Source: an uncultured Nitrososphaerales archaeon (GTDB lineage: Archaea > Thermoproteota > Nitrososphaeria > Nitrososphaerales > Nitrososphaeraceae). Taken from it: 64,000 bases of DNA. Within the stretch, counting starts at the first letter, position 1. The number at the start of each line of letters is the position of its first letter. A program made the translations under genes and the position numbers. Positions 1,687 through 59,603 of the stretch are shown one piece after another. The stretch spans positions 32,001 through 96,000 of the forward strand of contig CAVOHZ010000008.1 in the NCBI GenBank assembly GCA_963695855.1. Direction: 5' to 3'. The notes under the pieces are model-generated. The model did not search any database and was not told the DNA's origin. It saw only the letters and a list, made by a program, of their open reading frames with translations.

Positions 1687-1990
1687 ATAAGGAGAAAAAT
1701 TGCTGTATAAATATATTGACAAATAAGTTCCATTGAAATATTGTGAAATTAGGATATCTGGATAGTTACTCTAACGGTAACAATATATAATTTAAAAAGA
1801 TTTAATAATATTGAAACTATTTTTGGTTATATAGTAATCAATTATAGATAAAGTTTCCTGAAATACATATTTAATATTTATTGCTATTTATGAATATGCC
1901 AGTAATATTATCTTCTTTGCATGAACGTCATAATAGTGGATGTTACAAATTTAGTAAAAAGATTTTCTTCTAATGTAGTCCGCTCCAAAA

Positions 1991-2065
1991 ATTAAATTCC
2001 TAATAATTAAATGATATATATGCAAGTTAGTAGAACCCTGCTACATGGAGGATCCAACTCCCGAC
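1991..2065 (+). repeat. Dispersed intergenic repeat copy 1 (variant A, degenerate)
   Basis: ATTAAATTCCT-AATAAT head, then TAGAACCCTGCTACATGGAG and ACTCCCGAC shared with other copies. Confidence 0.55.
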
Positions 2066-2233
2066 AGGCACGAAGATTTTTAGGTGATTTTTTAATTTAG
2101 AAATATGAATAAAATCCGAATAAAATGACATCGTTCAAATTATAAAATAAATTAATATTTAATTTAATTTTCTGTACATTTGAATTGTTATATTCTTGAT
2201 CTAATTATATTGATAAATAACCAATTTGAATTT

Positions 2234-2920
2234 TCAACCTTCATATCCGCATTCACCAGATCTCGGTGAATTGACTATTGACAACATCATTTCTTCACCA
2301 CATTTATGATGTTGTATACAATTATCACAAAACGATGCTTTATTTCTGTCTTTTTCATGGATACAAATAGTACAAATTTTTGAAGCATCTTCTTTTTTAC
2401 ACTTTGCACATTTGAAAACAAGTGTATTGTTTCTGGCAACAAGTTTAATCTTTTCATTTTTTTTATTACTTAGAATCTTACCTGGTCTATCTGAAATAAC
2501 ACTAATTACAAGTTCAGTACTACTTCCATAATCATATATATAATCCAAATTCATTCCAGGTTGAAATATACCGCTTACAGGTATTGACATGCCCTTACGA
2601 TTTTCATATCTTTTACCATTAATAGTAAAATCACTTAAATGACCACAACATTCAAGCCAGGTATCTCTCAAGAACTTGTCTATATCCTTGAGTTTGCTTC
2701 TACCATCAGATTCAATAAACATCCAGTATTCTGGATAATATTTTGAAGAGATTTTTAATAGAAAAATAATATTTTTATTATCACTTGATATATTATTTTT
2801 GAGTATTTCAAAGTGAATATTTTTTCTTTGTTCGCAAGATTCAAGATGTTTAGCCATAGTAATACCATCATAATCTTTTGAGCAATAGGAACAATTTCCA
2901 TAAGTAACTGTCTTTTTCAC
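2234..2920 (-). CDS. pRiA4b ORF-3-like / IS1096 passenger TnpR-like protein with Cys-rich Zn-binding ends
   Basis: DKFLRDTWLECCGHLSDF, YIYDYGSST and C-terminal NSPRSGECGY, plus several CxxC motifs. Confidence 0.75.
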   Translation of the reverse strand: MKKTVTYGNCSYCSKDYDGITMAKHLESCEQRKNIHFEILKNNISSDNKNIIFLLKISSKYYPEYWMFIESDGRSKLKDIDKFLRDTWLECCGHLSDFTINGKRYENRKGMSIPVSGIFQPGMNLDYIYDYGSSTELVISVISDRPGKILSNKKNEKIKLVARNNTLVFKCAKCKKEDASKICTICIHEKDRNKASFCDNCIQHHKCGEEMMLSIVNSPRSGECGYEG

Positions 2921-2999
2921 AATGATACGTATTTTAAATTATTATTTATTAGTTTTGAGTAATATATGGATAATCAGAAATTGAAAACAAAGGCTATAT

Positions 3000-3104
3000 A
3001 TTTAAAGTTACATGATAATAACTAAATATCAAATAAAATTTTAAATATTTTCATTGTATCACAAAATTGGACTCCTTTTTTCGCATCACTATCGGTATTA
3101 CTCC
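3000..3104 (+). repeat. Dispersed intergenic repeat copy 2 (variant B)
   Basis: CATGATAATAACTAAAT head, then TTGGACTCCTTTTTTCGCATCACTATCGGTATTACTCC. Confidence 0.65.
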
Positions 3105-3156
3105 AAATGAAGTGAAACATTCACAAAATTTTAAATTGATTGAATCTATTTTATTA

Positions 3157-4029
3157 TCATTTATTACTTTTGATATAATTCTTAATAAACCACAATAAAA
3201 AATGATTCCATTCATCTTTAGTTTGTGATCTTTCTAATGAATTGTAATAGCTATTTCTTCCTTCATATGGAATATTAAACATAGGATATCCACTTTTATT
3301 TAAAACAAAATTCATCATTAACCTTGATATTCTACCATTTCCATCGCCGAATGGATGAATAGTTACAAATTTTAGATGAACAAATGCTGCTAATTCAATA
3401 GGATGCAACTTTTCTTTTTTATTATACCATTTAAAAAACTCTATTAGTAATGGGTAAATTTCTACTGGTAATGGAGGAATAAACTTGCTACCTGAAATTC
3501 CAACTTTGTGTTTTCTTATATTCCCAGAAATATCTGGTTTTGTATCCTGAAAGAGAACTTTATGCCATTCTAAGATTGCACTATATGATAAATCTTTTTT
3601 ATATTTTAATATTTTATAAAATAATTTTTTATGAGATTCTGCTTCTTTAATATCTTCAATAGGTTTATCTTTTGGAGTAATTCCTTTCTCCAATAAATTT
3701 GCAGTATCTCTTAATGATAATGTTGAACCTTCTATTCTTTGGGTATCATAAGTAAATCTGGTAGCAAATAATACTATTGATTTTTCTTTAATAGATCTTG
3801 GCATATTTTTGATTTCTTTATTGTAATTATTTTTTATGAGTTCAATAGAATCATACAATTCTTTGTAAGATTCTCTAAATATTTTGATCTTTAATTCATC
3901 TATATTTTTAGGTATTTGTTTCCCAATGTATTTTTCTCTATATTCTACTCTACCTGCTTTTCTTATTGTTTGTTGAAGATAATAGTATACATTACCTTTA
4001 TTGTCCTTTTTTTTCTTTATTGATACCAT
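3157..4029 (-). CDS. Fic family protein (class II, N-terminal inhibitory motif)
   Basis: Canonical HPFGDGNGRISR Fic motif; TQRIEG fits the (S/T)xxxE(G/N) inhibitory helix. Confidence 0.92.
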   Translation of the reverse strand: MVSIKKKKDNKGNVYYYLQQTIRKAGRVEYREKYIGKQIPKNIDELKIKIFRESYKELYDSIELIKNNYNKEIKNMPRSIKEKSIVLFATRFTYDTQRIEGSTLSLRDTANLLEKGITPKDKPIEDIKEAESHKKLFYKILKYKKDLSYSAILEWHKVLFQDTKPDISGNIRKHKVGISGSKFIPPLPVEIYPLLIEFFKWYNKKEKLHPIELAAFVHLKFVTIHPFGDGNGRISRLMMNFVLNKSGYPMFNIPYEGRNSYYNSLERSQTKDEWNHFLLWFIKNYIKSNK

Positions 4030-4036
4030 GCAAACT

Positions 4037-4088
4037 ATACCCTTACAAATTGATATTTAAATATAATAATATTAAAATGTAAGGGTAT
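4037..4088. promoter_or_regulatory. Perfect 11-bp inverted repeat flanking the fic promoter
   Basis: ATACCCTTACA (4037-4047) and TGTAAGGGTAT (4078-4088) surround a TTTAAATA TATA-like box. Confidence 0.55.
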
Positions 4089-4118
4089 TCAATTGTTTGA
4101 ATAATTAATTTTATGAAT

Positions 4119-4163
4119 GTTACCATAAAAGCTAAATACATGGTAGTTGAACCCTACTACATG
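4119..4163 (+). repeat. Dispersed intergenic repeat copy 3 (variant A)
   Basis: AAAAGCTAAATACATGGTAGTTGAACCCTACTACATG. Confidence 0.7.
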
Positions 4164-4313
4164 CAGGTTTTACTTTATTTCAAATAAATTTTGGTCAAAT
4201 CTGATAACTTTTCATTATAAATTTTAGTGAACAGCCATTATAAGATACCTTTGGAATTATGGGTTATTATACACATATTTATACTACTAAATATCCTAGA
4301 TGTCATTTTTTTG

Positions 4314-4616
4314 TTAAACCTTATAATATTTAGGTTTTGGTCCGACTTCTGACAGAAGTGTCTTAAAAATACTCTTATTATTGTCTATCTTAGTGATACA
4401 TACTTTGATATAATGCGGTGCTTCACCATGAGCGCAAGAATGAGCAATATCTCCCTCAATCTCATTACACCACACGTAAGCATGAAGGAAATATTGTGGA
4501 GCTTTGGCCTGAACACCACCAGAATAATTATCCCAATGCAGCTTTCTTAATTTAGAACTTTCTACTTCTGCAATCCTCCAATCATTCCACTTACGTCTTA
4601 CGGATATTTTTTCCAA
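4314..4616 (-). CDS. Hypothetical protein (100 aa)
   Basis: ORF with HSCAHG..PH.IKVC, a possible metal-binding cluster. Confidence 0.6.
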   Translation of the reverse strand: MEKISVRRKWNDWRIAEVESSKLRKLHWDNYSGGVQAKAPQYFLHAYVWCNEIEGDIAHSCAHGEAPHYIKVCITKIDNNKSIFKTLLSEVGPKPKYYKV

Positions 4617-4658
4617 ACCAATTAAAATTAATAAGTCACGTATTTTAATTTATTTAAT

Positions 4659-5110
4659 TTAGTATGTTAAAATTATCTTGTACTTTAAAGTAATATTTAA
4701 TCTCTCTTGTACTGATTTACGTGACCACATTTGGGGAACCGGTGGACTCCATGTATCAAAAGTTTCTGCAATTAAACCAATTTTAGGCCCTGAGATTTCA
4801 GGTATACCTTCATAAGATGGTCCTTCATAATTACATATAGTGTCCAATTAATTAATCGTAAAAGCCTCCTTTGTTTCACCAGATGCAAGCTTTGATTTAA
4901 TTTCGTCATTGTTATTATTGGTAATTATTTTTAATTTTGGTTTCTGGTCTTTAATATGCAATTTGTCTATTTTGCTTTCACCTTTGATAATGTAATCAAT
5001 ACTTCCAGTGACGAAGCATACTGTTTCTTCAATAAGCAATGGGTATACTATATTTCTTAACTCTAAATGTTCTAAAGAGTGATGTAATATAATTTCTAAA
5101 TATAGTTTCT
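4659..5110 (-). pseudogene. Degraded hypothetical gene
   Basis: ORFs 4848-5039 and 4659-4847 are in one frame, separated only by a TAA; the frame extends upstream (LEIILHHSLEHLELRNIVYP) without a start. Confidence 0.45.
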
Positions 5111-5524
5111 AGTGGTTTAAAAAATATCTAAAACCACCCATTTATGGAGTACATTTTAAAATACCTATTAATTAAAACAAAATTAACAATTATCTGTATA
5201 ATAATATTAAAGATGCATTTGTAATTATATAATATTTTTAACAAATTTTAAAGAATTTGTAAAATCTTGTTAAGATTAATATATAACTACAAAAGCTCAG
5301 CTTAAATCTGTATATGAGACTTAATACAAAAAAATCTAAATTTATATCAACAGCAACAACAAAAACCAGTGGACAATCCAGCAGAAGACAAAGGCCCTAT
5401 TCCAGTTGTATCAATTCAACAAGAACATAAAGATGAAACAGAAGAAGAGGATAACAACGAACGAAAACAACAAGAAGAACAACAATGAAGACGATTCAGA
5501 TTCAGGGGAGTGAATAAAGAAGAA

Positions 5525-5671
5525 ATGACAACAGTATATACAACAATTTGTATAAGATGCAGAAAGGAGTTTATCGAACAAACGGGAAAGGTTTGCATCT
5601 ATTGTAGTGGATTGGTTTGTCCTTTTTGTTTTAATAACCACATGGAAGAGAGACATAAGGGATGGCTATAA
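5525..5671 (+). CDS. 48-aa Zn-finger microprotein (not in the ORF track)
   Basis: MTTVYTTICIRCRKEFIEQTGKVCIYCSGLVCPFCFNNHMEERHKGWL: three CxxC and two His; stop abuts the convergent gene's stop. Confidence 0.65.
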   Translation: MTTVYTTICIRCRKEFIEQTGKVCIYCSGLVCPFCFNNHMEERHKGWL

Positions 5672-6082
5672 TCAAGGTAGACGCTTTAATTGGGTTTTAC
5701 ATTTCTCACAAAAATTAAATTCTTTATTATTTGGATAACGACAATTCCAACATATAACAAAGTCGACATTTTTAAAAATACGTTGTTTGGCTTTCTCTTC
5801 TAAGGCAGCCAATTCATCTTGATTATTTGAATATATATTATTAAGTACTGTCCTTACTATTGATGCAATAAAAAACATCCCATCTGGCTGTGCTTCTAAT
5901 CTTGTTTTTTGATTCACATTGTCATAACTAACTCCAAATTCTATTTTCAATGGAAGGACATTCTTATCTAAATCCTGATATACGTCTCGACGTATATCCT
6001 CAAATCTTGTCATACATTCCAAAAAAATTGTGTATTCTAATGGGTATTTCTGTTTAAAATATTCTAATGGGTCGTAACTCAT
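5672..6082 (-). CDS. Hypothetical protein with C-terminal zinc ribbon
   Basis: CWNC...N...FCEKCK zinc-ribbon motif. Confidence 0.7.
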   Translation of the reverse strand: MSYDPLEYFKQKYPLEYTIFLECMTRFEDIRRDVYQDLDKNVLPLKIEFGVSYDNVNQKTRLEAQPDGMFFIASIVRTVLNNIYSNNQDELAALEEKAKQRIFKNVDFVICWNCRYPNNKEFNFCEKCKTQLKRLP

Positions 6083-6111
6083 TCATTTGATATTCTGATA
6101 ATATCAATTAA

Positions 6112-6165
6112 ACTTTCACCCACTTTTCAACACCCAAATACAACACCCGAAGATTCAACAGAACC
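6112..6165 (-). mobile_element. Orphan IS6-like terminal inverted repeat
   Basis: Reverse strand reads GGTTCTGTTGAATC, with subterminal CAACACCC repeats; it abuts the truncated IS5 transposase. Confidence 0.5.
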
Positions 6166-6520
6166 AGATTTTTCAATTTCTATCATTTAAAGGAATTCAA
6201 CCAACAATTAAGGTAAGAAAGAATTCTAGATGTAGAAAGACTAACCATTATTTGAGAAACAAGAACGTACAATTACATAAAACCAATCTACAACAATGGA
6301 AGGATAGTGTAGACGATGGACAAAGATGGATTGTAGAAACAGTATTTTCCTGCATTAAGAGAATGTTTGGAGAATATGTTACTGCTATCAGATTTGAGAA
6401 CATGATAAAAGAGATGATATTAAAAGCATCATTGTATAACTGGTTTCAAAGTATAACTGTTACATAATTTACATTAGTAACAAAAAATAGATGATTATCT
6501 AAATGAGTTACGCAACAGAC
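6166..6520 (+). pseudogene. IS5-family transposase C-terminal fragment and element end
   Basis: KGIQPTIKVRKNS...GQRWIVETVFSCIKRMFGEYV...FENMIKEMILKASLYN, typical of IS5 DDE C-termini. Confidence 0.8.
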
Positions 6521-6756
6521 CAAAAATATGTATAAGTGTTTTTTGTAATTCCGAACATAGCCAATATATTTTTTAGTTTATTCAAACAATTATGATTTTA
6601 AAACAAATGTCGTATAATAGATTCAATCTAAGACCAATTTGTTCAATTTTCCAGTTATTGTTGAACAAATCAGATTCATAGAGTATGACATTCCATTCTT
6701 TTTTTTAAACCTTTTGAATTTGAAATATTCAATAGTCAAATAATATCATGATACTA

Positions 6757-6821
6757 TTAATAAAAGTTAAATACAAGGTAATAGAATCTCTACATTAGAC
6801 TCTTATTTTTCGCCTCTATCG
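6757..6821 (+). repeat. Dispersed intergenic repeat copy 4 (variant B, truncated)
   Basis: AAAAGTTAAATAC...ATCTCTACATTAGACTCTTATTTTTCGCCTCTATCG. Confidence 0.7.
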
Positions 6822-6881
6822 TATATCTTAATAAAATTCTAATACTCATTTTTTTTATTTTTTGACGATGGGTGTTAGAGG

Positions 6882-7112
6882 CTACCATAACACCCGCTCG
6901 GAGCAAGAAAGAATAGAGGAGTAGCAACTAATATTAAACCTGAATGAATAAAAATTTTGATTAAGAAGATTCGGAATTATGTTAGAGAAATATCCTACCT
7001 TTTTACATTCATTCATCTTTTCGAATTCAGTATCCCAGTTATCTATAACGTCAAAACCAAATAATACCTCGCCACGTTTAACAAGAGATTCATTGTACTT
7101 CTTGCCGTTCAC
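6882..7112 (-). pseudogene. IS5-family transposase N-terminal fragment
   Basis: KYNESLVKRGEVLFGFDVIDNWDTEFEKMN matches the IS5 N-terminal YN.SLV.RG motif; the sequence then diverges. Confidence 0.75.
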
Positions 7113-7199
7113 ATGTATATCATGACTAGGATATAGGTTATATAGCTAAATGTGTTAGGAATAGTAAGTTAGGCAACAAAGCATTTATTATTCTTAAAA

Positions 7200-7601
7200 G
7201 TGATACTAAATAATATGTCTAATGGTACTAGTCCAAAAAGTTCTTCTAAAAAGCCTACTAAAAATATCACAACAGCGAAGGAAGTAAAAGAAACAAAATC
7301 AGTTCCTATAACCGTACAATTAAACATACTTAAAGTTCTGCTAAATGACCGTTCTCTTATTCCATTATTGAGAATACTAAAAAAGAACAAAGAGTTGCAC
7401 ACAAGAGAATTACTTAGCAATATAGGAAGTTGGGGATATGGACAATCCTTAATGAAAAGAGCCACAAATTTAGGTTTGATTGAAAGAAAAGTAAAGAAAG
7501 AAAAATCTCCTGGGCGAGGTAAACCAAGGATTTATAATTCTTTAACAAATAAGGGTAGAGAAGTAATAGGATTAGCTGATAAAGTCGTATACACAAAGTA
7601 A
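7200..7601 (+). CDS. Winged helix-turn-helix DNA-binding protein
   Basis: LGLIER...GRGKPRIYNSLTNKGREV wing motif. Confidence 0.7.
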   Translation: MILNNMSNGTSPKSSSKKPTKNITTAKEVKETKSVPITVQLNILKVLLNDRSLIPLLRILKKNKELHTRELLSNIGSWGYGQSLMKRATNLGLIERKVKKEKSPGRGKPRIYNSLTNKGREVIGLADKVVYTK

Positions 7602-7962
7602 TTGTTTGGAAAAAACCTCTTATTTAGTATAACGTTACTAGTATTTGAACAAACTTTAGCCATAAGTAGATAAGAATTTTTGTTGTCTGATAGTAACTAA
7701 TAGTATCGAAGTTACTTCAAATATTAATCACTTTATAATGGTTTAAATGTATTAAGTTTTTTATCCTCTCCATAATGTATAACTATTGTAAGTCATGTGA
7801 ATATTAGGTAAGATGAATAGCTACGCTAAAATCATCCCCTGACGTTCACTATTCTGAAAGATTTAAAGAACTAAAATTAGCCATACATACCTTAAGTAAT
7901 GTTATCTAGGTCTAAACTTCTATCTTAAATTTCACATATTTCATTTTCAAAAATAATTAAAA

Positions 7963-8051
7963 ATTAAGTTTCTAATGATAAAAGCTAAATAGCAGGTTGT
8001 AGTATCTCTACATTAGACTCTTATTTTAGCACCGCTATAGGTGTTACTCCC
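7963..8051 (+). repeat. Dispersed intergenic repeat copy 5 (variant B, near complete)
   Basis: ATTAAGTTTCT-AATGAT-AAAAGCTAAAT...TATCTCTACATTAGACTCTTATTTTAGCACCGCTATAGGTGTTACTCCC. Confidence 0.8.
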
Positions 8052-8108
8052 CTACTTGCCTTGTCATATCAGTTTTTACATTTTGATACATTTTTACTTT
8101 TGAGGAGG

Positions 8109-8477
8109 TTATGAAAATATTTTGCTACGTCTTGAGATTATATTAATGGCTAAATAAGAAAGAGGAGAAGCAGCTATAGAAGATAATATTGCTGATTCAA
8201 AAGGTCTGAATCCTATTAGTAATAGTTCATATAGTATTATCCATCGTGATATATTATTAACAATATCAAAGATAGACCACGTAAATATCATCTTCTTTAT
8301 TATTTGTTTGAGGCGATTAAAATTAATCTCGCTACAAAATCGATTAGTATATTTTCGTTTATTATCGATATGAAAAAGTGCTATAAAAGATACCTTATAA
8401 ATTATAAATCCTCCAATCACTGTTATCGTAGAAGTAAATATGGTATTAGGAGAATATATTTTTGTACCTTTAATCAT
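8109..8477 (-). CDS. Membrane protein, probably 5'-truncated
   Basis: About three hydrophobic segments. Confidence 0.5.
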   Translation of the reverse strand: MIKGTKIYSPNTIFTSTITVIGGFIIYKVSFIALFHIDNKRKYTNRFCSEINFNRLKQIIKKMIFTWSIFDIVNNISRWIILYELLLIGFRPFESAILSSIAASPLSYLAINIISRRSKIFS

Positions 8478-8913
8478 ACCACGGTAAGATAAAAAATGGT
8501 TCGTTTCAATTGTAAACTATATAGCAAATGATTTAATAATATAAATGTCAGGTCTAGGACAATTAAAAAATGAAGAGTCTACTTATTAATTGGTCCTTTT
8601 TCTGAGCTTTTTCTCGACTCATCATACATACTACCCAGTTGTTTTCTTTTTATCGTCTTTACTATCTTTTTTCTTTTTTCTAAATCTAGAAAATAGTCCC
8701 ATAAAATTATAAAAGTGGGTTTCAGATAGATAAAGATATCTAGGATAACCTAGGGATAAGACAGTATAGAATATAGATGTTATAATAAAATAAATAAATC
8801 ACACTAGTAGTAAAAAAGATTTACAAATATAATCTAAATACCAAATAAAATCAATATAGATATACAACATTTACCACAACCATGCTTTAAAATAACAAAA
8901 ACCAACAGGTATT

Positions 8914-9078
8914 ATGGAAAAAGAGGAAAGGGATAAATCGCTTTTTGGTGATATTGCATCTGAGTTAAAAATTCAAGATGAAATAGAATCCTATGATAAT
9001 ATCATGGAACAACGCCCAAAATACAAGGTATGGTATAATTTATGTTTGGCATTGGATTCAATAGGATATCAAGAATAA
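8914..9078 (+). pseudogene. TPR-repeat remnant
   Basis: IESYDNIMEQRPKYKVWYNLCLALDSIG resembles one TPR unit, followed by an early stop. Confidence 0.35.
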
Positions 9079-9243
9079 ACCTAAAGTATTATAATAAATA
9101 TATAACGTGGTAGTTATACAATTATTAATGTTTCTCATACCAATTATTTTCATTTTTTATCAATAGATTAAAAAATATTAAAAGTATTGGTTAAGGTATT
9201 GTACTGATTTAATTTTTTAGTTATGACGTAGTTACTGTCTTTT

Positions 9244-9468
9244 CTATTTGTTTTGTATAAGAAATACTTTTTCATTCACACTTGCTATTGTCATTTGAAT
9301 GGATGTATCATTCAATTCCTTTTGTTTTTTTAAGAGGTACTTTGCTCCTCTTTTTTTAAAAATCTTATTTAATTTTTTGGATAGTTTATATAGTTCGTAA
9401 AAAGATTTACTATTTTGTTTTGCTGAAGGAGAAATATCCTCATTTGAAGAAGTATCAAAAGGGGGCAT
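9244..9468 (-). CDS. Hypothetical protein or fragment
   Basis: Short ORF only. Confidence 0.3.
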   Translation of the reverse strand: MPPFDTSSNEDISPSAKQNSKSFYELYKLSKKLNKIFKKRGAKYLLKKQKELNDTSIQMTIASVNEKVFLIQNK

Positions 9469-9939
9469 ATGTCAATGTTCCATCTGGCTGAAGTTTTGGA
9501 TTTGGAATAGCTTTTTGTCTATCAAATTCTACCTTACTTGTTATTGATGGAGAATATATTTAAGGACCATTATTATTTCCACTAGAAGATTTTTTTCGTT
9601 ACTCGCTTTGTTTTTGCCAATAGTCACATACTATACATATACACTCTAATATTTAATAGTTTGATACAATTAAATTGTTATAGCTGGGTGGTCATTATTC
9701 TTTGTAAGCTTCGAATCTCATGCGATTGATATATTTAGGACATTTATATAATATATCCCATACTTATATAGTATTTTTACCAATTTTTTGTAATTTAGTT
9801 ATTATTTTTACCTTAAACAATAAGGAAAGTTTGAAATATTTTACTTTCATAGTATGTGAAGTTATAAAGATTGACCACTTTTTTATGTATATTAATAGTT
9901 TATCTACACCCTTATTTACCTCTCTTCATATGCTAAAAA

Positions 9940-10479
9940 ATGTATGTTAATATGATGTCAACTAAAAAACAAGATAGAAAAGATGATAGTGAGGATTCAA
10001 TCGAAATTCATTCACAAACTGCAGAACAATTTCAACGAGAACAACAACAAACAGTTAACGAAGTAATAGATGAAACTAAAGATAATATCAAAAAAACAAT
10101 AGATGAAGCAAGAAGAGAGATTCCACGTTATACACAAATAGTTAATGATTTTCAGGAAAATAATATTCAGGCTATTAGAGAAATTACGGATAATTTTGTA
10201 GATTCTCAAAAAGATATTCTAAATAATTCATTACGCCTCTGGTCTGAGTGGACAGTTTCTCCAAGACAATTTGCTGAAAACTATGGAAAAATAGTTAGTA
10301 GTATTGCAGATAATACAGTTGCGGCAAGTAGAGTAATAAATAACACTGTATTTGCAAATCTAGATTCTGTCAATACATCTGTCAAGCACACCAAAGATAC
10401 TGTAAATGAACTATCAAAAATAGGAACCAATGTTGTTAAAACAGTTCAACAAGTTTCAAGACGCCAGTTAAAGCAATAA
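9940..10479 (+). CDS. Helical Nitrososphaeraceae-type conserved protein (possibly phasin-like)
   Basis: Q/N/E-rich amphipathic helices (QREQQQTVN...EARREIPRYTQ); family recognised from memory only. Confidence 0.6.
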   Translation: MYVNMMSTKKQDRKDDSEDSIEIHSQTAEQFQREQQQTVNEVIDETKDNIKKTIDEARREIPRYTQIVNDFQENNIQAIREITDNFVDSQKDILNNSLRLWSEWTVSPRQFAENYGKIVSSIADNTVAASRVINNTVFANLDSVNTSVKHTKDTVNELSKIGTNVVKTVQQVSRRQLKQ

Positions 10480-10837
10480 TAAGAAGAAACTCGAATTACT
10501 AACAACAACAATAAAATAAATAATAAGACAAAGAGTATCTATTTAGAGTAACATAAAATACTATAATCTCTTTTTTTTACATTTATTAATCTAGGTCATT
10601 GAACATAAGTATTAAGATAATGATGTTAGGTTTTTTACCAACACTGATGAGAGGCAAGCTGTTGAAAATTGACTTCAATATGTATAAAAATATATTAGAT
10701 GTACAATTTAAAAGTGTGATTCAATCAGTTAAATTATTTTTGCTAATTTTCTTTTTCCTTTATTCATAGATAATACAAATAGATAATTAAACTAAATATA
10801 TCTATATCAAATAGTTCCAATACTGTATAGAAATTGA

Positions 10838-11215
10838 AAACAATTTATTATTTTAACTATAGGTTTATCAATAATCATAATAATAGGTTTATTTTTTATT
10901 TTAAAAGAACAAGATAAAAAACCATACTCATTAGAAATTGACGCTATTAAAGATAAAACCGATATTTCAGGTACTATGTACAGAGTCAAAGCAACCAATA
11001 CAGGAACCAATCCTCTTACAGAACTAAAAGTAAATTTGGGAAAAGGCGATATTCAAAACATGGATTTACTGGAATCAGGACAATCATTTTTCTTTTATCC
11101 TAAACCAGACACTAATACAATTATTGTAAAAGTTACAACTAGCGAGAGAATAGAAAAAGAGAGTAATTGCCGTTCTCCATTAAAAGGATTAGGATTACCA
11201 GGGAGTGGCAGATAA
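10838..11215 (+). CDS. Membrane-anchored small protein, 5' start disrupted
   Basis: The frame of ORF 10976-11215 extends upstream through KQFIILTIGLSIIIIGLFFIL (a TM anchor) to a TGA; a TTG lies one base out of frame. Confidence 0.5.
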   Translation, partial: KQFIILTIGLSIIIIIGLFFILKEQDKKPYSLEIDAIKDKTDISGTMYRVKATNTGTNPLTELKVNLGKGDIQNMDLLESGQSFFFYPKPDTNTIIVKVTTSERIEKESNCRSPLKGLGLPGSGR

Positions 11216-11256
11216 TAAAAGCTAAATACTATGTATTAGAACCCTACTACATGGAC
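11212..11256 (+). repeat. Dispersed intergenic repeat copy 6 (variant A)
   Basis: ATAATAAAAGCTAAATACTATGTATTAGAACCCTACTACATGGAC. Confidence 0.75.
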
Positions 11257-11368
11257 AATTGCAAGACCAAATGATAGCTCTTTCAAGAATATTATTATTT
11301 CAAATGTTATGCATTAGTTTCTAACATTTCTAAAAAACTCTTATTAATTATATTGATAGAATAAGCTC

Positions 11369-11551
11369 ATGTTTCAACACCATGATGAACATGAATTCAA
11401 AAAAATTATCGATGAATTTATTCTATCTTCATCAAATAATGAAACAATAAAAAATATAGATTTTGAAGCATACAAATTCGGAATTTCTTTTTATAAAATG
11501 ATGTTCATATTAATCCAAAAAGATGCTCTCCATAATAGAAAATCTCAGTAA
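11369..11551 (+). CDS. Small hypothetical protein (60 aa)
   Basis: ATG ORF with a TATA-like box upstream. Confidence 0.5.
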   Translation: MFQHHDEHEFKKIIDEFILSSSNNETIKNIDFEAYKFGISFYKMMFILIQKDALHNRKSQ

Positions 11552-11595
11552 GATAAATGACAAACTATTAAACGGATTTTGATTTTTATATTTTA

Positions 11596-11687
11596 ATTAA
11601 GTTTCTAATAATAAAAGCTAAATACAGGATACTACTATCTTTACATTGGACTCCCTTTTTAGAACCGCTATCGGTGTTACTCCCGAC
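11596..11687 (+). repeat. Dispersed intergenic repeat copy 7 (variant B, complete)
   Basis: ATTAAGTTTCT-AATAAT-AAAAGCTAAAT...TACATTGGACTCCCTTTTTAGAACCGCTATCGGTGTTACTCCCGAC. Confidence 0.8.
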
Positions 11688-11908
11688 GGGCCCGTACTTT
11701 TCTAGGGACCACCATATATTCGTAGATTAAGATAATATTATTCGATCAAAATATGTATTAGAAAATAGGTGAGAAAGAGATTTCATTTTCTACTTAAACA
11801 TTATTTTCTATTCTTCTTATTGTCAATAATTCAGAATGATAGAATATTACAAGATCAGATAATGTTCCTTCTAGCCATAGATATATTAAATTCGTATTTA
11901 ACAATGTA

Positions 11909-12085
11909 ATGAGCGATAGTAACATTATGAATGTAGGAAAAGAAACTAAATGTCCTATTTGTATAAAGAAATTCATTGAACATTCAGAGTTACAGGACAA
12001 AATATGCAAAATGATCACAATAATGCAATTTGCAAATATCTCTCCAGGTTTCGATGTTCAACATAGACCTTTCTTTGAAGATTAA
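11909..12085 (+). CDS. 58-aa Zn-binding microprotein (not in the ORF track)
   Basis: MSDSNIMNVGKETKCPICIKKFIEHSELQDKICK...: C-x2-C-x6-H-x7-C, behind the duplicated promoter. Confidence 0.65.
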   Translation: MSDSNIMNVGKETKCPICIKKFIEHSELQDKICKMITIMQFANISPGFDVQHRPFFED

Positions 12086-12161
12086 ATATCTATAATTCTT
12101 CAATTTTAGTTTCTATCTGTTTCTTTAGTATGAACTGCACAAACCAGTGAATGCAGATAAC

Positions 12162-12184
12162 GGGTTCAAATCCCATCCCTTCCA
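12162..12184 (+). repeat. tRNA 3'-end (T-arm/acceptor) remnant
   Basis: GGGTTCAAATCCCATCCCTTCCA with no matching 5' tRNA half. Confidence 0.55.
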
Positions 12185-12384
12185 TGCTAGTCATGCTGAT
12201 ATTATTTCTTATCTTGGGTCTTTCGTGGACCTGTATTGGTTGCTGTAATGCTAGGATTTCACTTTCCACCTAAATATCATTTTCTATTCTTCTTATAGTC
12301 AATAATTCAGCATGATAAAATATTACAAGATTAGATAATGTTCCTTCTAACCTTAGATATATTAAATTCGCATTTAACAATATA

Positions 12385-13098
12385 ATGAGCAATAACAACA
12401 ATAGAATGATAGTTTTTGCTTCTATATTGGGAGCAATACTGGCAACAATTATGCTCGCTCTAAACCCATCAACAATTACATACGCAGGTGCACAAATGTA
12501 CGGAGACCACCAGTACGGATATGATAATAACCATGAAAAAAAGAGTTCTCATACAGATATCCAGAAAATATCCTGTGTAAACAGTAACATAAATGTAAAT
12601 GGTATAGATATTACCCAAATACCTGAAGACACTACTGCTACTGCAGCAGCAAATGAAGAAGCAGGTCCAGACGCAGCAAATACACAAAATGGAAATGGCT
12701 TCGATAAAATAAACTTCGACAGAAACCTGGTAAATATATGTGTAAATGTTAATTTGAATGAGCAACTAAGAAATGTTCGAACATGTGAAAGTTGCTTTAC
12801 AACAGTCCTAAGTCAAAACGAATTAAATGATTTAATACGAGCCATAACAGAAGATGGTGGTCCACTTTCATTACAAGAACTTTGTGACTTTATTGCTGGC
12901 AATCTAGACGAGGAAGGTCGTGCATTCATAAGTGAAAGACTATTCACGCTAGGTGGTAGTGTAGGAATATCAGCAGATAAAATTAATGAGATCTTGGATT
13001 GTCTTGAGGAAGTATTTGGTGGTGATTTTCCAAGAGATATTAATGGCGGCACTTTACAGTCACAACAGATGAATTGGAAATCTATAGGTAATAATTGA
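12385..13098 (+). CDS. Secreted hypothetical protein (multicopy Nitrososphaeraceae-type family)
   Basis: Signal peptide; IQKISCVNSNINVNGIDITQIP block and Cys-containing helical C-terminus. Confidence 0.8.
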   Translation: MSNNNNRMIVFASILGAILATIMLALNPSTITYAGAQMYGDHQYGYDNNHEKKSSHTDIQKISCVNSNINVNGIDITQIPEDTTATAAANEEAGPDAANTQNGNGFDKINFDRNLVNICVNVNLNEQLRNVRTCESCFTTVLSQNELNDLIRAITEDGGPLSLQELCDFIAGNLDEEGRAFISERLFTLGGSVGISADKINEILDCLEEVFGGDFPRDINGGTLQSQQMNWKSIGNN

Positions 13099-13350
13099 GT
13101 TATTACCCGATCAATAATATCCTTTTTATTTTTTTCCTTTTTTTCTTTTTTTTAAATATAAATTAATTAGTCAAAATATTTTGGACCGTCATTCTGTTCA
13201 TAAAACTTTACCAGATTAACTAACCGCTGTCGTTGTAAAGGATTTCTATTTTATTATTTTCTTCATAGAAATCCATAAACCTGTTTAATTCGTCGTCGTA
13301 ACATTCGTTATCCCTACTTTTCATTTTTAACCTGGAAACTGTCTTCCTAC

Positions 13351-13441
13351 GTCGGGAGTAATACCGATAGCGGTGCAAAAATAAGAGTCTATGTTAGAGA
13401 TACTACTACTATGTATTTAATTTTATCATGGAAACATAAAT
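13351..13441 (-). repeat. Dispersed intergenic repeat copy 8 (variant B, inverted)
   Basis: Reverse strand: CATGATAAAATTAAATAC...TATCTCTAACATAGACTCTTATTTTTGCACCGCTATCGGTATTACTCCCGAC. Confidence 0.8.
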
Positions 13442-16609: not shown

Positions 16610-17680
16610 TTGAATCATCTTGGAATAGATGTCGGAAAAAGAATATGCAGAGTAGCACTAAAAGATGACATGGGAAAGATACAGGATGAATTCTTCTTTG
16701 GTAACAATTCTCAGGGAATATTAGAATTGATTAAAAGGACACAGAATTATAGAACAAAAAAATGTAATGCAGTACTGGAATCTACCGGTAACATGTGGAT
16801 GAGAATACATGATACACTGGAAGATAATGGAATAGATACTATACTTGCCAATCCATACAAGACAAAGATAATAGTACAAGCAAAGATAAAATCAGATAAA
16901 CTTGATGCTTCTATATTATCTGATCTGCTGAGAACTGGATTGGTATACGAATCATATGTACCTGTAAAGGAATTCAGAGAAAAAAGGAGTCTGGTCAGAC
17001 ACAGGATAGTATTATCCAGAACCAAAACAAAACTAGCAAACAAGGTTCATGCTATTTTAGACAAATATGAATACAGAACAGAACTGGCAGATATATTTGG
17101 AAAATCTGGAATTGAGTGGCTGAAATCACTGTCTGTTTCACCAATAGACAAAATAATACTGAATACGACACTAACATCAATAGAATCTATAGCTAACCAG
17201 ATAGAAATAGTATCAAAAGAGATAGCAAGATATGCCTGGCAAGATAGTCAAGATGTAAAGTTACTTCTAAGTATTACAGGTATAGACATATTTTCTGCAA
17301 TGCTGATATCAACAGAGATAGTTGATATCACTAGATTCTCTACACCATGGAAACTTGTTAGTTATGCAGGATTGGCACCATCTACAAGAGAGTCATCTGG
17401 AAAAATAAAAACAGGTAGAATAACAAAACAAGGTTCTCCATTGCTGAGATGGATACTAGTACAGTGTTCATTATCTGCCATCAGACATGACCATCATATG
17501 AGAACATTCTATGAAAGAATCAAACAGAGAAAGGGGCATGGAAAAGCAATAGTTGCGACAGCAAAAGAAATGCTTGTTGTAATATGGTACATGCTAACAA
17601 GACACCAATTGTATAGATACATGAACAAGACTAGATATGAGGAGAAACTAGAAAGACTGAAGAAGATCGGATCTCAATAA
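16610..17680 (+). CDS. IS110 family DEDD recombinase/transposase
   Basis: GIDVGK, LESTG, KSDKLDA and SYAGLAPSTRESSG...ITKQGSPLLR. Confidence 0.95.
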   Translation: MNHLGIDVGKRICRVALKDDMGKIQDEFFFGNNSQGILELIKRTQNYRTKKCNAVLESTGNMWMRIHDTLEDNGIDTILANPYKTKIIVQAKIKSDKLDASILSDLLRTGLVYESYVPVKEFREKRSLVRHRIVLSRTKTKLANKVHAILDKYEYRTELADIFGKSGIEWLKSLSVSPIDKIILNTTLTSIESIANQIEIVSKEIARYAWQDSQDVKLLLSITGIDIFSAMLISTEIVDITRFSTPWKLVSYAGLAPSTRESSGKIKTGRITKQGSPLLRWILVQCSLSAIRHDHHMRTFYERIKQRKGHGKAIVATAKEMLVVIWYMLTRHQLYRYMNKTRYEEKLERLKKIGSQ

Positions 17681-41810: not shown

Positions 41811-41917
41811 TGGAGGAGGTGGGATTTGAACCCACGAACCCCTAAAGGACGGGATCACCCATTATTCAGGATTTGATCTTGAGTCCTGCGCGTTTGACCA
41901 GGCTTCGCGACTCCTCC
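41811..41917 (-). tRNA. tRNA-Leu(CAA) with a 22-nt intron at 37/38 (41856-41877)
   Basis: GGAGGAG acceptor stem, D-arm, CT-CAA-G, intron, long variable arm, GGTTCAAATCC T-arm. Confidence 0.92.
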
Positions 41918-59507: not shown

Positions 59508-59603
59508 GGGGCTATCGTCTAGCTTGGATCAGGATACCATCTTCAACTTGAGGGTATAAGCCTGGGGCGCTGGCGGTCGTGGGTTCAAATCCCACTGGCC
59601 CCA
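59508..59603 (+). tRNA. tRNA-Pro(GGG) with a 20-nt non-canonical intron in the anticodon stem (~29/30; 59540-59559)
   Basis: GGGGCTA/TGGCCCC acceptor; removing 20 nt gives CCAGC-CTGGGGC-GCTGG and a 76-nt cloverleaf. Confidence 0.9.

Follow-up and report, generated by a model that had tools for sequence, protein, structure and literature searches.

The repeat copies that punctuate the first 13.4 kb of the window, a 64,000-nt stretch of archaeal DNA analysed here, are most likely attP/attR-type ends of integrative elements that target a single tRNA 3' end, probably that of tRNA-Lys UUU, as judged by sequence comparison. The arrays formed by these copies are unusually long and separate small accessory-gene blocks. 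An earlier note on this DNA had proposed a gene-module array driven by XerA or another tyrosine recombinase acting at a dif-like repeat head; this was right in spirit, but wrong as to site and enzyme. Our reading would account for the building and shuffling of accessory-gene regions in widespread uncultured soil ammonia-oxidising archaea, with one tRNA 3' end, in about 85 copies, marking nearly all junctions in these regions.

Repeat finding combined with reading of the sequence placed eight copies in the window, near the coordinates reported earlier. A whole-genome nhmmer search with A-type and B-type profiles recovered exactly these eight (Table 1) and none between 13.4 kb and 64 kb, confirming that the core half of the window is free of the repeat. 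Genome-wide, the search yielded 85 copies with a median spacing of 1754 nt, and the family was present in all searched genomes of the genus. The repeat family is far above chance, with 0–1 matches for shuffled motif controls versus 5–22 for the real motifs. Almost all copies (176 of 179) are intergenic. Variants A and B were both recovered, A being B minus 21 nt. The alternation of repeats and genes described at 2–4.6 kb also held, with minus-strand ORFs at 2234-2920, 3157-4029, and 4314-4616 alternating with copies.

Table 1. Positions of repeat copies, their parts and cargo modules in the window.
Feature	Position	Strand	Description
Copy 1	1989..2090	+	A-type, degenerate head; T-arm-like GGATCCA, then tRNA 3' core with two mismatches (ACTCCCGACAGGCACG), then tail
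Cargo module, 228-aa cysteine-rich ORF	2234..2920	-	No Pfam match
Copy 2	3001..3109	+	Degenerate B-type, core ~3066 to 3105; similarity ends past ACTCCA; ~50 nt from stop codon of convergent Fic gene
Cargo module, Fic/DOC-family gene	3157..4029	-	Pfam E=5e-23
Copy 3	4108..4165	+	A-type; TATA part of head (ATAAAAGCTAAATAC) and GAACCCTACTACATG; truncated ahead of tRNA-derived core
Copy 4	6746..6821	+	B-type, decayed core (TCGCCTCTATCGTATATC)
Copy 5	7962..8051	+	Full head H1 at 7966-7992, TATA-like GCTAAATA, B core 8012-8051; similarity stops past ACTCCC, 6 nt inside tRNA-identical block
Copy 6	11197..11253	+	A-type; TATA box and GAACCCTACTACATGGAC, then divergence; end of ORF 10976-11215 replaces left part of head
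Cargo module with 60-aa ORF 11369-11551	11263..11594	+	
Copy 7	11595..11711	+	Most complete copy in window; head H1 11599-11625, TATA-like box 11617-11624, predicted transcript start near 11647-11649, B core from 11645
Copy 7, proposed att core	11679..11694	+	ACTCCCGACGGGCCCG, the last 16 nt of tRNA gene G000:C8:2734-2821
Copy 7, arm	11695..11711	+	TACTTTTCTAGGGACCA; type b arm
Copy 8	13350..13441	-	Inverted; decayed head, B core; first 9-10 nt of tRNA-derived core (reverse complement GTCGGGAGT at 13351-13359), then tail GTAGGAAGACA

The tRNA gene whose 3' end matches the proposed att core of copy 7 lies 29 kb upstream on the same strand, is probably tRNA-Lys UUU, and is the only tRNA in the genome with that acceptor stem. 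As in an att site, a stretch of the repeat is identical to a tRNA 3' region: besides the 16-mer, there are 11 genomic occurrences of the 13-mer CTCCCGACGGGCC, of which one lies in the tRNA and the other 10 all fall inside repeats. A-type copies have 21–23 nt in common with the tRNA; for core B, homology to the tRNA upstream of the 16-mer was without statistical support. Downstream of the genuine tRNA, five arm types were distinguished over 17 readable places in the genus, and four of these types are the tails seen past the 16-mer in repeats. The type b arm follows the genuine tRNA in five of the 17 readable relatives.

A second mark of an att site, an integrase gene adjoining the site or its tRNA, was also present. 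In one tail class, 100 nt separate the repeat from a downstream gene for a 427-aa tyrosine integrase, an assignment based on a PHROG integrase match (E=4e-7) because Pfam gives only E=0.029. The tRNA itself is directly followed by an 80% identical paralogue, and this locus has the same 16-mer and arm. Across 17 genomes, the tRNA 3' end directly precedes the arm and integrase gene at 16 of 17 integrase loci, and ARAGORN called a tRNA in eight of the 12 loci submitted. The order repeat, arm, integrase gene was seen at C8:291644, L027, and L070, and one integrase gene is bracketed by two repeat copies. These loci beside the tRNA or repeat bear out the suggested link to integration by a tyrosine recombinase, whereas XerA as the recombining enzyme is not supported; a member of this integrase family would be the acting enzyme. 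In another genus, the same family accompanies clean attL/attR pairs 27–33 kb apart (three genomes), with a TATA-like box ~40 nt upstream of the attR core.

Breakpoints cluster in the tRNA-derived block. Similarity to the consensus ends within the 16-nt tRNA-identical block in 113 of 179 copies, and elsewhere in the arm (26), at the end of the arm (33) or in the core (7). The losses inside the block give indirect support to recombination at the att core. The breakpoints, expected earlier at a 6-bp spacer in the head, thus lie at the opposite end of the repeat. Of the 59 neighbouring pairs separated by less than 10 kb, 53 have both copies in the same orientation (runs test on orientation, z=-4.6 for C8 and z=-3.0 for C10), and the 13 '+' copies at 21.7–43.6 kb of C8 lie on the same strand as the tRNA at 2.7 kb.

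Flanks and recurring blocks both supported the view that the repeats lie where independently assorting gene modules meet. The left and right flanks of copies assort independently. The end of a repeated segment of at least 250 nt is contained in 45 of the 85 copies, and 85 of 1192 such ends fall in copies (3.3% expected, 2.1-fold enrichment, p=1e-10). The block at 3066-4177, carrying the Fic gene whose identity was confirmed (Table 1), recurs with different neighbours in another species (L120), where its boundaries are again one B and one A copy. The ORF at 2234-2920, previously described as pRiA4b-like, matched no Pfam family at E<=0.01 and recurs by itself in a relative, on a separate contig (G017:C178, 92%). 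The module containing the 60-aa ORF and the H1-B copy that follows it recur together in many genomes of the genus, and C10:925533 and C8:296220 share a ~430-nt module with a B copy on one side and an A copy on the other.

In archaeal promoters, a BRE hexamer rich in purines accompanies a TATA box of 8 bp ~24 nt upstream of the start. The right half of the 11-6-11 head is better read as such a BRE/TATA box, that is, as a predicted promoter, which the earlier note had mentioned as an alternative. An unrelated second head (H2) that replaces H1 sets its TATA box at the same distance, 19–21 nt before the core start; the fit of both heads was judged by eye from this constant distance and against the archaeal consensus. 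The 28-mers previously singled out in the best copies (ATTAAGTTTCT-AATGAT/AATAAT-AAAAGCTAAAT) are indeed present at 7963 and 11596, but in only these two of the eight window copies. The arms of each pair at 8/11 positions, which is not beyond chance because 261 positions in the 64-kb window score equal or better in 11-6-11 geometry. Head H1 including the left arm is found in only 37 of the 85 genome copies, and the left arm is absent from H2 and truncated copies.

A full copy would accordingly read as four parts: an element-borne BRE/TATA promoter (head H1 or H2), an element arm of ~35 nt (core B or the shorter core A), 16–23 nt identical to the tRNA 3' end as the putative site of strand exchange, and, past the crossover, host DNA or the integrase-side arm of an older element. 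While the element is circular, transcription from the promoter would run via the att core into the integrase. After integration, the integrase would sit beside the tRNA and the promoter at the far end, firing outward; this severing of the integrase from its own promoter suggests a simple regulatory design. Long co-oriented arrays could arise as elements integrate again and again at the tRNA and at scars already present, and decay of inserts together with recombination between scars could reduce spacing to 1–2 kb and set small accessory-gene modules apart.

Several observations weigh against reading the copies as att scars. Arrays at C8 177–315 kb, C10 913–945 kb, and C3 66–83 kb are distant from the tRNA, and the median spacing is far below the 27–33 kb of intact elements. 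The 16-mer is retained with at most two errors in only 24 of 85 copies, most copies having lost part of the core. The integrase family, found in 17 of 18 genera, ranges much more widely than the repeat, which is essentially limited to one genus; in that genus, four of the 13 genomes carry many copies and no integrase match at E<=1e-30. No clean attR was identified in G000 for the element now resident at the tRNA, and no excision product, circular junction or empty site was found.

It is possible, though unlikely, that the copies form an active cassette platform, in which an integrase working in trans would cut out single-gene att-bearing modules as circles and insert them again at other repeats, much as integrons do or as happens when cis-mobilisable elements accrete. 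Equally tentative is its fuller form, a genus-specific, integron-like gene capture based on the att site of tRNA-Lys-targeting integrases, in which one- or two-gene modules, each with its own tRNA-derived att core and outward promoter, would be cut out and re-inserted in trans at any earlier scar, giving arrays of a dozen or more cassettes. The short spacing and co-orientation of copies would fit, as would the Fic module, which in two species has a copy at each edge and different neighbours, the ~430-nt B-to-A module at two sites, and the one bracketed integrase gene. However, the search for a circular junction or empty site was negative, the far side of many shared segments is without a copy, genes lie in either orientation relative to copies, most copies have lost part of the core, and homologous recombination between scars would yield the same mosaics. 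If single modules are mobile, an integron-like system would have arisen independently from ordinary tRNA-site integration.

Integron cassette arrays exist in archaea too, and they likewise have co-oriented recombination sites punctuating short unrelated cargo and a tyrosine recombinase linked to the site. The integron analogy drawn earlier nevertheless fails on attC structure and gene orientation. The site here is tRNA-derived and has no imperfect palindrome of the attC type, which in integrons closes the 3' end of co-oriented, mostly promoterless cassettes; right-hand gene neighbours lie on the same strand in 80 cases versus the opposite strand in 75, and each site has its own predicted promoter with a TATA head instead of one shared Pc. 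Integrons use an IntI-type integrase; the integrase here gave Pfam and PHROG integrase matches. Bacterial ICEs and cis-mobilisable elements (CIMEs) accrete at tRNA genes, in known cases as a few elements of several kb each. Integrase-less att-flanked segments similarly pile up in tandem and could move in trans, but here there are dozens of units of 0.1–5 kb, and in an archaeon.

It is improbable that the head promoter drives transcription of the copies as small RNA genes or as a shared 5' leader, with the core kept for RNA function. The TATA distance is fixed in two unrelated heads, conservation is high from -17 to +22, and G-U pairs of the arm hairpin work on the + strand only. Against this, covariation equalled that of controls (76.3% of cells paired, equalled or beaten by 263 of 500 shuffles), RNAalifold retained only three pairs, folding z-scores ranged from -1.1 to +1.1, Rfam gave no matches, and about half of the copies end before the hairpin. 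The small RNA once offered as an alternative left no covariation signal, and the tRNA acceptor strand and the element arm account for the hairpin.

Spread by a transposase, as a MITE or an IS200/IS605-derived miniature transposon, is very improbable. The high copy number, intergenic placement, fairly sharp left edge of head H1, and 14 IS110-family matches in the genome would be compatible with it. However, we found no terminal inverted repeats, target-site duplication or empty site, and no cognate transposase (no TnpB domain, no Y1 transposase above the curated cut-off); copies are strongly co-oriented, and the right end varies inside the tRNA-identical block.

We give still less credence to leaderless micro-peptides encoded by the copies (A: M-E/D-x-S-T-P-D/E..., 9–19 aa; B: L-D-S-Y-F-C-T-A-I-G-I-T-P-D...). 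The 21-nt difference between A and B keeps the frame, in most A copies the predicted transcript start coincides with an ATG, and a few changes look synonymous. Yet codon-position conservation is 0.86, 0.92, and 0.89, and therefore shows no wobble pattern, most B copies have TTA at the would-be start codon, stop positions vary, and 'TPDGP' is simply what one reading frame of the tRNA T-stem and acceptor yields. A truncated gene start for variant B, as had been considered, is likewise unsupported: ORFs starting there reach 62 aa at most, and no pattern by codon position was seen. Least plausible of all is shuffling of modules by XerA at the 28-bp head as a Xer/dif-like site: the geometry and pairing at 7963 and 11596 are at chance level, there are 85 copies where Xer/dif has one site per replicon, H2 copies are entirely without the 28-mer, and breakpoints lie 60–90 nt off, within the tRNA-derived block.

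For the preferred reading, ends of elements integrating at a tRNA, the closest known system is the attL/attR scars and tandem arrays of archaeal integrative elements that target tRNA genes and carry class II, pNOB8-type integrases following the lambda paradigm (thaumarchaeal iMGEs, Krupovic et al. 2019, PMC6563490; review PMC8371274). According to the former source, integrated elements of thaumarchaea insert for the most part at tRNA 3' ends, their median att site is 17 bp long, and arrays of tyrosine-recombinase elements are known (PMC6563490). Shared with the elements as described there are a tRNA 3' identity block (16–23 nt here), an intact integrase gene adjoining the tRNA, direct repeats with re-use of the same site, and module exchange between tandemly integrated elements. 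In contrast to those descriptions, there are 85 copies per genome here rather than 2–3, spaced ~1.8 kb (median) rather than tens of kb apart; arrays lie far from the tRNA; every scar has a conserved promoter-like head and a 35-nt arm; and the repeat family is genus-wide, the integrase family family-wide. In pTN3-type integration, as that review presents it, insertion into a tRNA gene separates the integrase promoter from the catalytic part (PMC8371274). Similarly, the integrase promoter would here come to lie at one end after integration, with the coding part downstream of the tRNA promoter; the gene is split there (suicidal integrase), whereas here it is intact as a whole beside the tRNA.

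For a thaumarchaeal integrase family as yet uncharacterised, the 16–23 nt block offers a candidate substrate. Assembly breaks occur at the tRNA because of the repeats, which could also help find mobile cargo in metagenomes of the genus. The tail of copy 8 was also found at G000:C8:201738 and in L086.

The intergenic repeat represents a known kind of scar that has been amplified strikingly, and specifically in this genus. A full copy comprises a promoter-like head, a core (short in variant A, long in variant B), a tRNA-derived 16-nt block and an arm. A five-seed profile matched the genome (GCA_963695855.1; 3.55 Mb, 11 contigs) 56 times at E < 1e-3, and A-type and B-type profiles combined yielded 85 copies at E < 0.01. 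Contig CAVOHZ010000008.1 (C8) makes up 17% of the genome, yet carries 45 of the 85. Copies were concentrated at 0–50 kb and 175–325 kb of C8, 900–950 kb of contig C10 and 50–100 kb of contig C3. The repeat was detected in each of 18 genomes from the genus, and none of 12 from the order's other families contained it; a second draw gave 13 of 13 genus genomes and, within the family, six of 107 genomes from 17 other genera. The idea that those genera hold a single ancestral locus was rejected, the six weak matches being ordinary low-copy members with heads. Scanning 185,579 species genomes with a 19-mer returned 90 stretches, of which seven were bacterial chance matches without flank similarity and the rest were titled Nitrososphaeraceae or Nitrososphaerales MAGs. 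From this genome and the scanned loci, 179 distinct copies were anchored (176 intergenic). In the literature searched, no publication was found that describes this repeat or is relevant on thaumarchaeal MITEs.

The window (C8:32001-96000; G+C about 30%) holds the eight related copies reported in the earlier note, as seen by repeat search and direct reading, and whole-genome nhmmer with both profiles limited the family to these eight within it. Copies alternate with three minus-strand ORFs at 2.2–4.6 kb, as described. Of these, Pfam backed only the Fic identity (E = 5e-23); the ORF claimed to be pRiA4b-like matched zero Pfam families. Across its first 16 kb the window is mosaic, with modules that were found singly on other contigs of 24 relatives, in alignments that begin or end at copies. 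The Fic module lies between a B copy and an A copy both here and in a relative's locus (L120), with different neighbours.

Coordinates of the features discussed, in the window unless a contig is named
Feature	Position	Strand	Remark
Repeat copy 1	1989	+	
Repeat copy 2	3001	+	
Repeat copy 3	4108	+	
Repeat copy 4	6746	+	
Repeat copy 5	7962	+	
Repeat copy 6	11197	+	
Repeat copy 7	11595-11711	+	contains ACTCCCGACGGGCCCG
Repeat copy 8	13350	-	
ORF claimed as pRiA4b-like	2234-2920		
IS5-like DDE transposase fragment	6252-6467		within array
IS5-like DDE transposase fragment	6882-7112		within array
Multi-copy segment	7175-7707		
ORF in multi-copy segment	7200-7601		133 aa, small, basic; no Pfam match
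149-nt direct repeat, first unit	11779-11927		
Partial tRNA 3' half	12148-12185		T-arm GGGTTCAAATCCC plus acceptor strand
149-nt direct repeat, second unit	12255-12403		
ORF	12385-13098		
IS110-family transposase gene	16610-17680		3 kb past last copy
tRNA call	41811-41917	-	
tRNA call	59508-59603	+	
tRNA before integrase paralogue	C8:2734-2821		acceptor GGGCCCG
Integrase paralogue, 80% identity	C8:2892-4172		
Integrase ORF, 427 aa	C8:290264-291544		
Repeat copy near integrase	C8:291644		
N-terminal integrase fragments	C8:124585, 126906, 205459; C10:1327188, 1328854, 1364785; C3:91202, 370438; C5:7216		first 55–86 residues only

Counted from the G of GCACCG, positions -17 to +22 form an invariant block, ATTAGACTCTTATTTTTGCACCGCTATCGGTATTACTCCC, and conservation drops stepwise past +19, +22 and +25. 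Roughly one copy in two runs on through GACGGGCCCG, nine variable bases and CGGGTTCAC before diverging. Variant A is variant B minus 21 nt, with the end unchanged. Upstream stand two unrelated heads, H1 (AAGTTTCTAATAATAAAAGCTAAATAC...) and H2 (...AAAGTAAATCTTAAATATTATC...), both with a TATA-like octamer 19–21 nt before the core start and a purine/A-rich hexamer ahead of it. Of the readings in the earlier note, BRE/TATA suits the head better than a dif-like site: by eye, both heads fit the geometry of an archaeal BRE/TATA promoter, with a predicted start at the A/G of TTAGAC/TTGGAC, about 24 nt past the TATA box. The orientation of neighbouring genes was not fixed (right-hand neighbours: 80 on the strand of the repeat, 75 on the other; left-hand neighbours: 96 and 61), and their proteins were diverse.

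In one right-flank class, the repeat lies 100 nt upstream of an ORF of 427 aa that is, judged from its sequence, a divergent tyrosine integrase. It matched PHROG integrase families (E = 3.8e-7 and 1.2e-5) and Pfam Phage_integrase at just E = 0.029; no homologue with a solved structure was found by sequence. The genome has three more full-length or near-full-length homologues (80%, 61% and 61% identity), the last beginning at residue 47 and containing internal stops, and many N-terminal fragments. The fragments listed in the table could represent decay or a second, gene-splitting integration mode. None of the 12 Phage_integrase matches in the genome adjoins arrays.

The regions upstream of 17 integrase genes from 17 genomes were examined, and in 16 the gene directly follows a tRNA gene. 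The order at those loci is T-arm, acceptor strand, about 9 nt, a (C)GGGTTCATATAC-like box, about 60 nt, a ribosome-binding site and ATG. ARAGORN called the tRNA in eight of 12 submitted loci, the remaining loci having introns. In the window's genome, the 80% paralogue comes after the only tRNA with its acceptor sequence, which is probably an intron-containing tRNA-Lys(UUU). The tail of the repeat near the 427-aa ORF is identical to the last 16 nt of this tRNA, ACTCCCGACGGGCCCG, plus the arm beyond. All 10 occurrences of the 13-mer CTCCCGACGGGCC outside the tRNA fall in repeats. By these identities, what the earlier note took for a hairpin consists of the tRNA acceptor strand with an element arm after it. 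By eye, core B looked suggestively similar to the tRNA anticodon and T arms, but the scores did not exceed those of shuffled sequences.

Across the genus, 20 of 25 genomes contained the tRNA 3' end with at most one mismatch, giving 25 places in all. Genuine tRNAs accounted for 21 places; the other four are pseudo-tRNA ends, two of them A-type copies matching the tRNA at 22 of 23 nt. At four of the 21 genuine tRNA-Lys loci of relatives (L158, L160, L166 and L170), the contig stops no more than 1 nt from where the tRNA ends, as a repeat boundary would predict, evidently because att repeats break short-read assemblies there. The 17 readable downstream sequences comprised five arm types (three, five, five, two and two places), four of which are exactly the tails found after the 16-mer in different repeat copies. 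The tRNA is thus a hot spot shared by several families of elements. From sequence comparison, each repeat resembles the attP of one such family, or else its attR joined to the arm of an older attL.

In three genomes of another genus, the 3' 14-mer of the tRNA-Arg beside the integrase family turns up one or two more times on that strand, 27–33 kb away. These attR copies also carry a degenerate T-arm and, some 40 nt upstream, a TATA-like box. Two loci (L027 and L070) preserve the unbroken order TATA, core, 16-mer, arm and integrase gene. From this order and the attR form, we infer that the head serves as the integrase promoter of the element and reads through attP. The predicted promoter would transcribe across attP into the gene, and integration would part the two. 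In PMC8371274, pTN3 insertion is described as leaving the integrase promoter and catalytic part on opposite sides, and tandem integration as favouring module exchange. According to PMC6563490, most thaumarchaeal integrated elements use tRNA 3' ends, their median att length is 17 bp, and site re-use lets tyrosine-recombinase elements build arrays. Loci L150, L152, L154 and L155 of the other genus hold 27–33 kb elements that are integrated at tRNA-Arg(TCG) and bounded by clean attL and attR sites; in one such genome, two attR copies mark a tandem pair.

Similarity to the consensus was lost inside the tRNA-identical 16-nt block in 113 of the 179 copies; it ended in the arm in 26, at the arm end in 33 and in the core in seven. 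Pairs of copies have either the left flank and head or the right flank in common, left and right assorting independently. Ends of repeated segments of at least 250 nt were 2.1-fold enriched in copies (p = 1e-10), 45 of the 85 containing one. On C8 the orientations run 13+, 3-, 1+, 4-, 1+, 17-, 4+, 2-; runs tests gave z = -4.6 for C8 and -3.0 for C10. Neighbouring pairs less than 10 kb apart were co-oriented in 53 of 59 cases, and the median copy spacing was 1754 nt. The 13 '+' copies, which include the window's seven, share the strand of the tRNA 19–41 kb upstream. Most arrays lie away from the tRNA, array units are far smaller than intact elements, and the 16-mer is kept with at most two errors in just 24 of 85 copies. 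The integrase family was found in 17 of 18 genera and 88 of 121 genomes, a tally that takes in the unpublished genomes G069 and G107 (the genus count is unchanged without them), and in nine of 13 genomes of this genus (E ≤ 1e-30). As the integrase family is wide and the repeat essentially genus-bound, the proliferation of the repeat is genus-specific, and the integrase is not a sufficient explanation by itself.

In its broader form, the earlier note's recombinase-made module array stands, with the proposed tRNA-derived att core as the site in place of dif/XerA. The dif/XerA reading is wrong: the arms of the 28-mer pair at eight of 11 positions, a level that 261 positions in the window attain, and H1 heads just 37 of the 85 copies. 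A MITE was rejected, as no inverted ends, target duplications or empty sites were found when the flanks on both sides of every copy were checked against this genome and relatives' loci. That comparison gave tandem copy-number differences only; in the best empty-site candidate (L079 versus C8:294227), the two sites differ by a single unit of a B-linker-A composite. The suggestion of a structured small RNA found no support in folding z-scores of -1.1 to +1.1 and three pairs retained by RNAalifold. Covariation did not beat shuffled controls: among 56 sequences selected on the 5' arm alone, the paired share of cells was 76.3%, which 263 of 500 shuffles equalled or exceeded, and Rfam had no match for the repeat (window at gathering threshold, 11500-12500 by E-value). 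A truncated gene start is contradicted by a longest in-frame ORF of 62 aa among the 27 anchorable copies of 56, and by codon-position conservation of 0.86, 0.92 and 0.89. An IS200/IS605, omega-RNA or PATE origin was dismissed, the TnpB domain not being found and the Y1 transposase falling below cut-off.

Several smaller features accompany the array. The partial tRNA 3' half, uncalled by ARAGORN and Rfam, may have been left as a scar when an element integrated into a second tRNA; a 29-nt match to it adjoins a repeat copy in another species (L120). The region around it is bracketed by the 149-nt direct repeat (89% identical), which sits just upstream of an ORF. The multi-copy segment recurs in this genome and most genomes of the genus at 85–96% identity. 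The genome has 14 IS110 matches. At the two tRNA positions listed together in the table, Rfam called a 107-nt tRNA missed by ARAGORN, which probably contains an intron, and ARAGORN called an odd tRNA with a four-base anticodon elsewhere than the 107-nt one.
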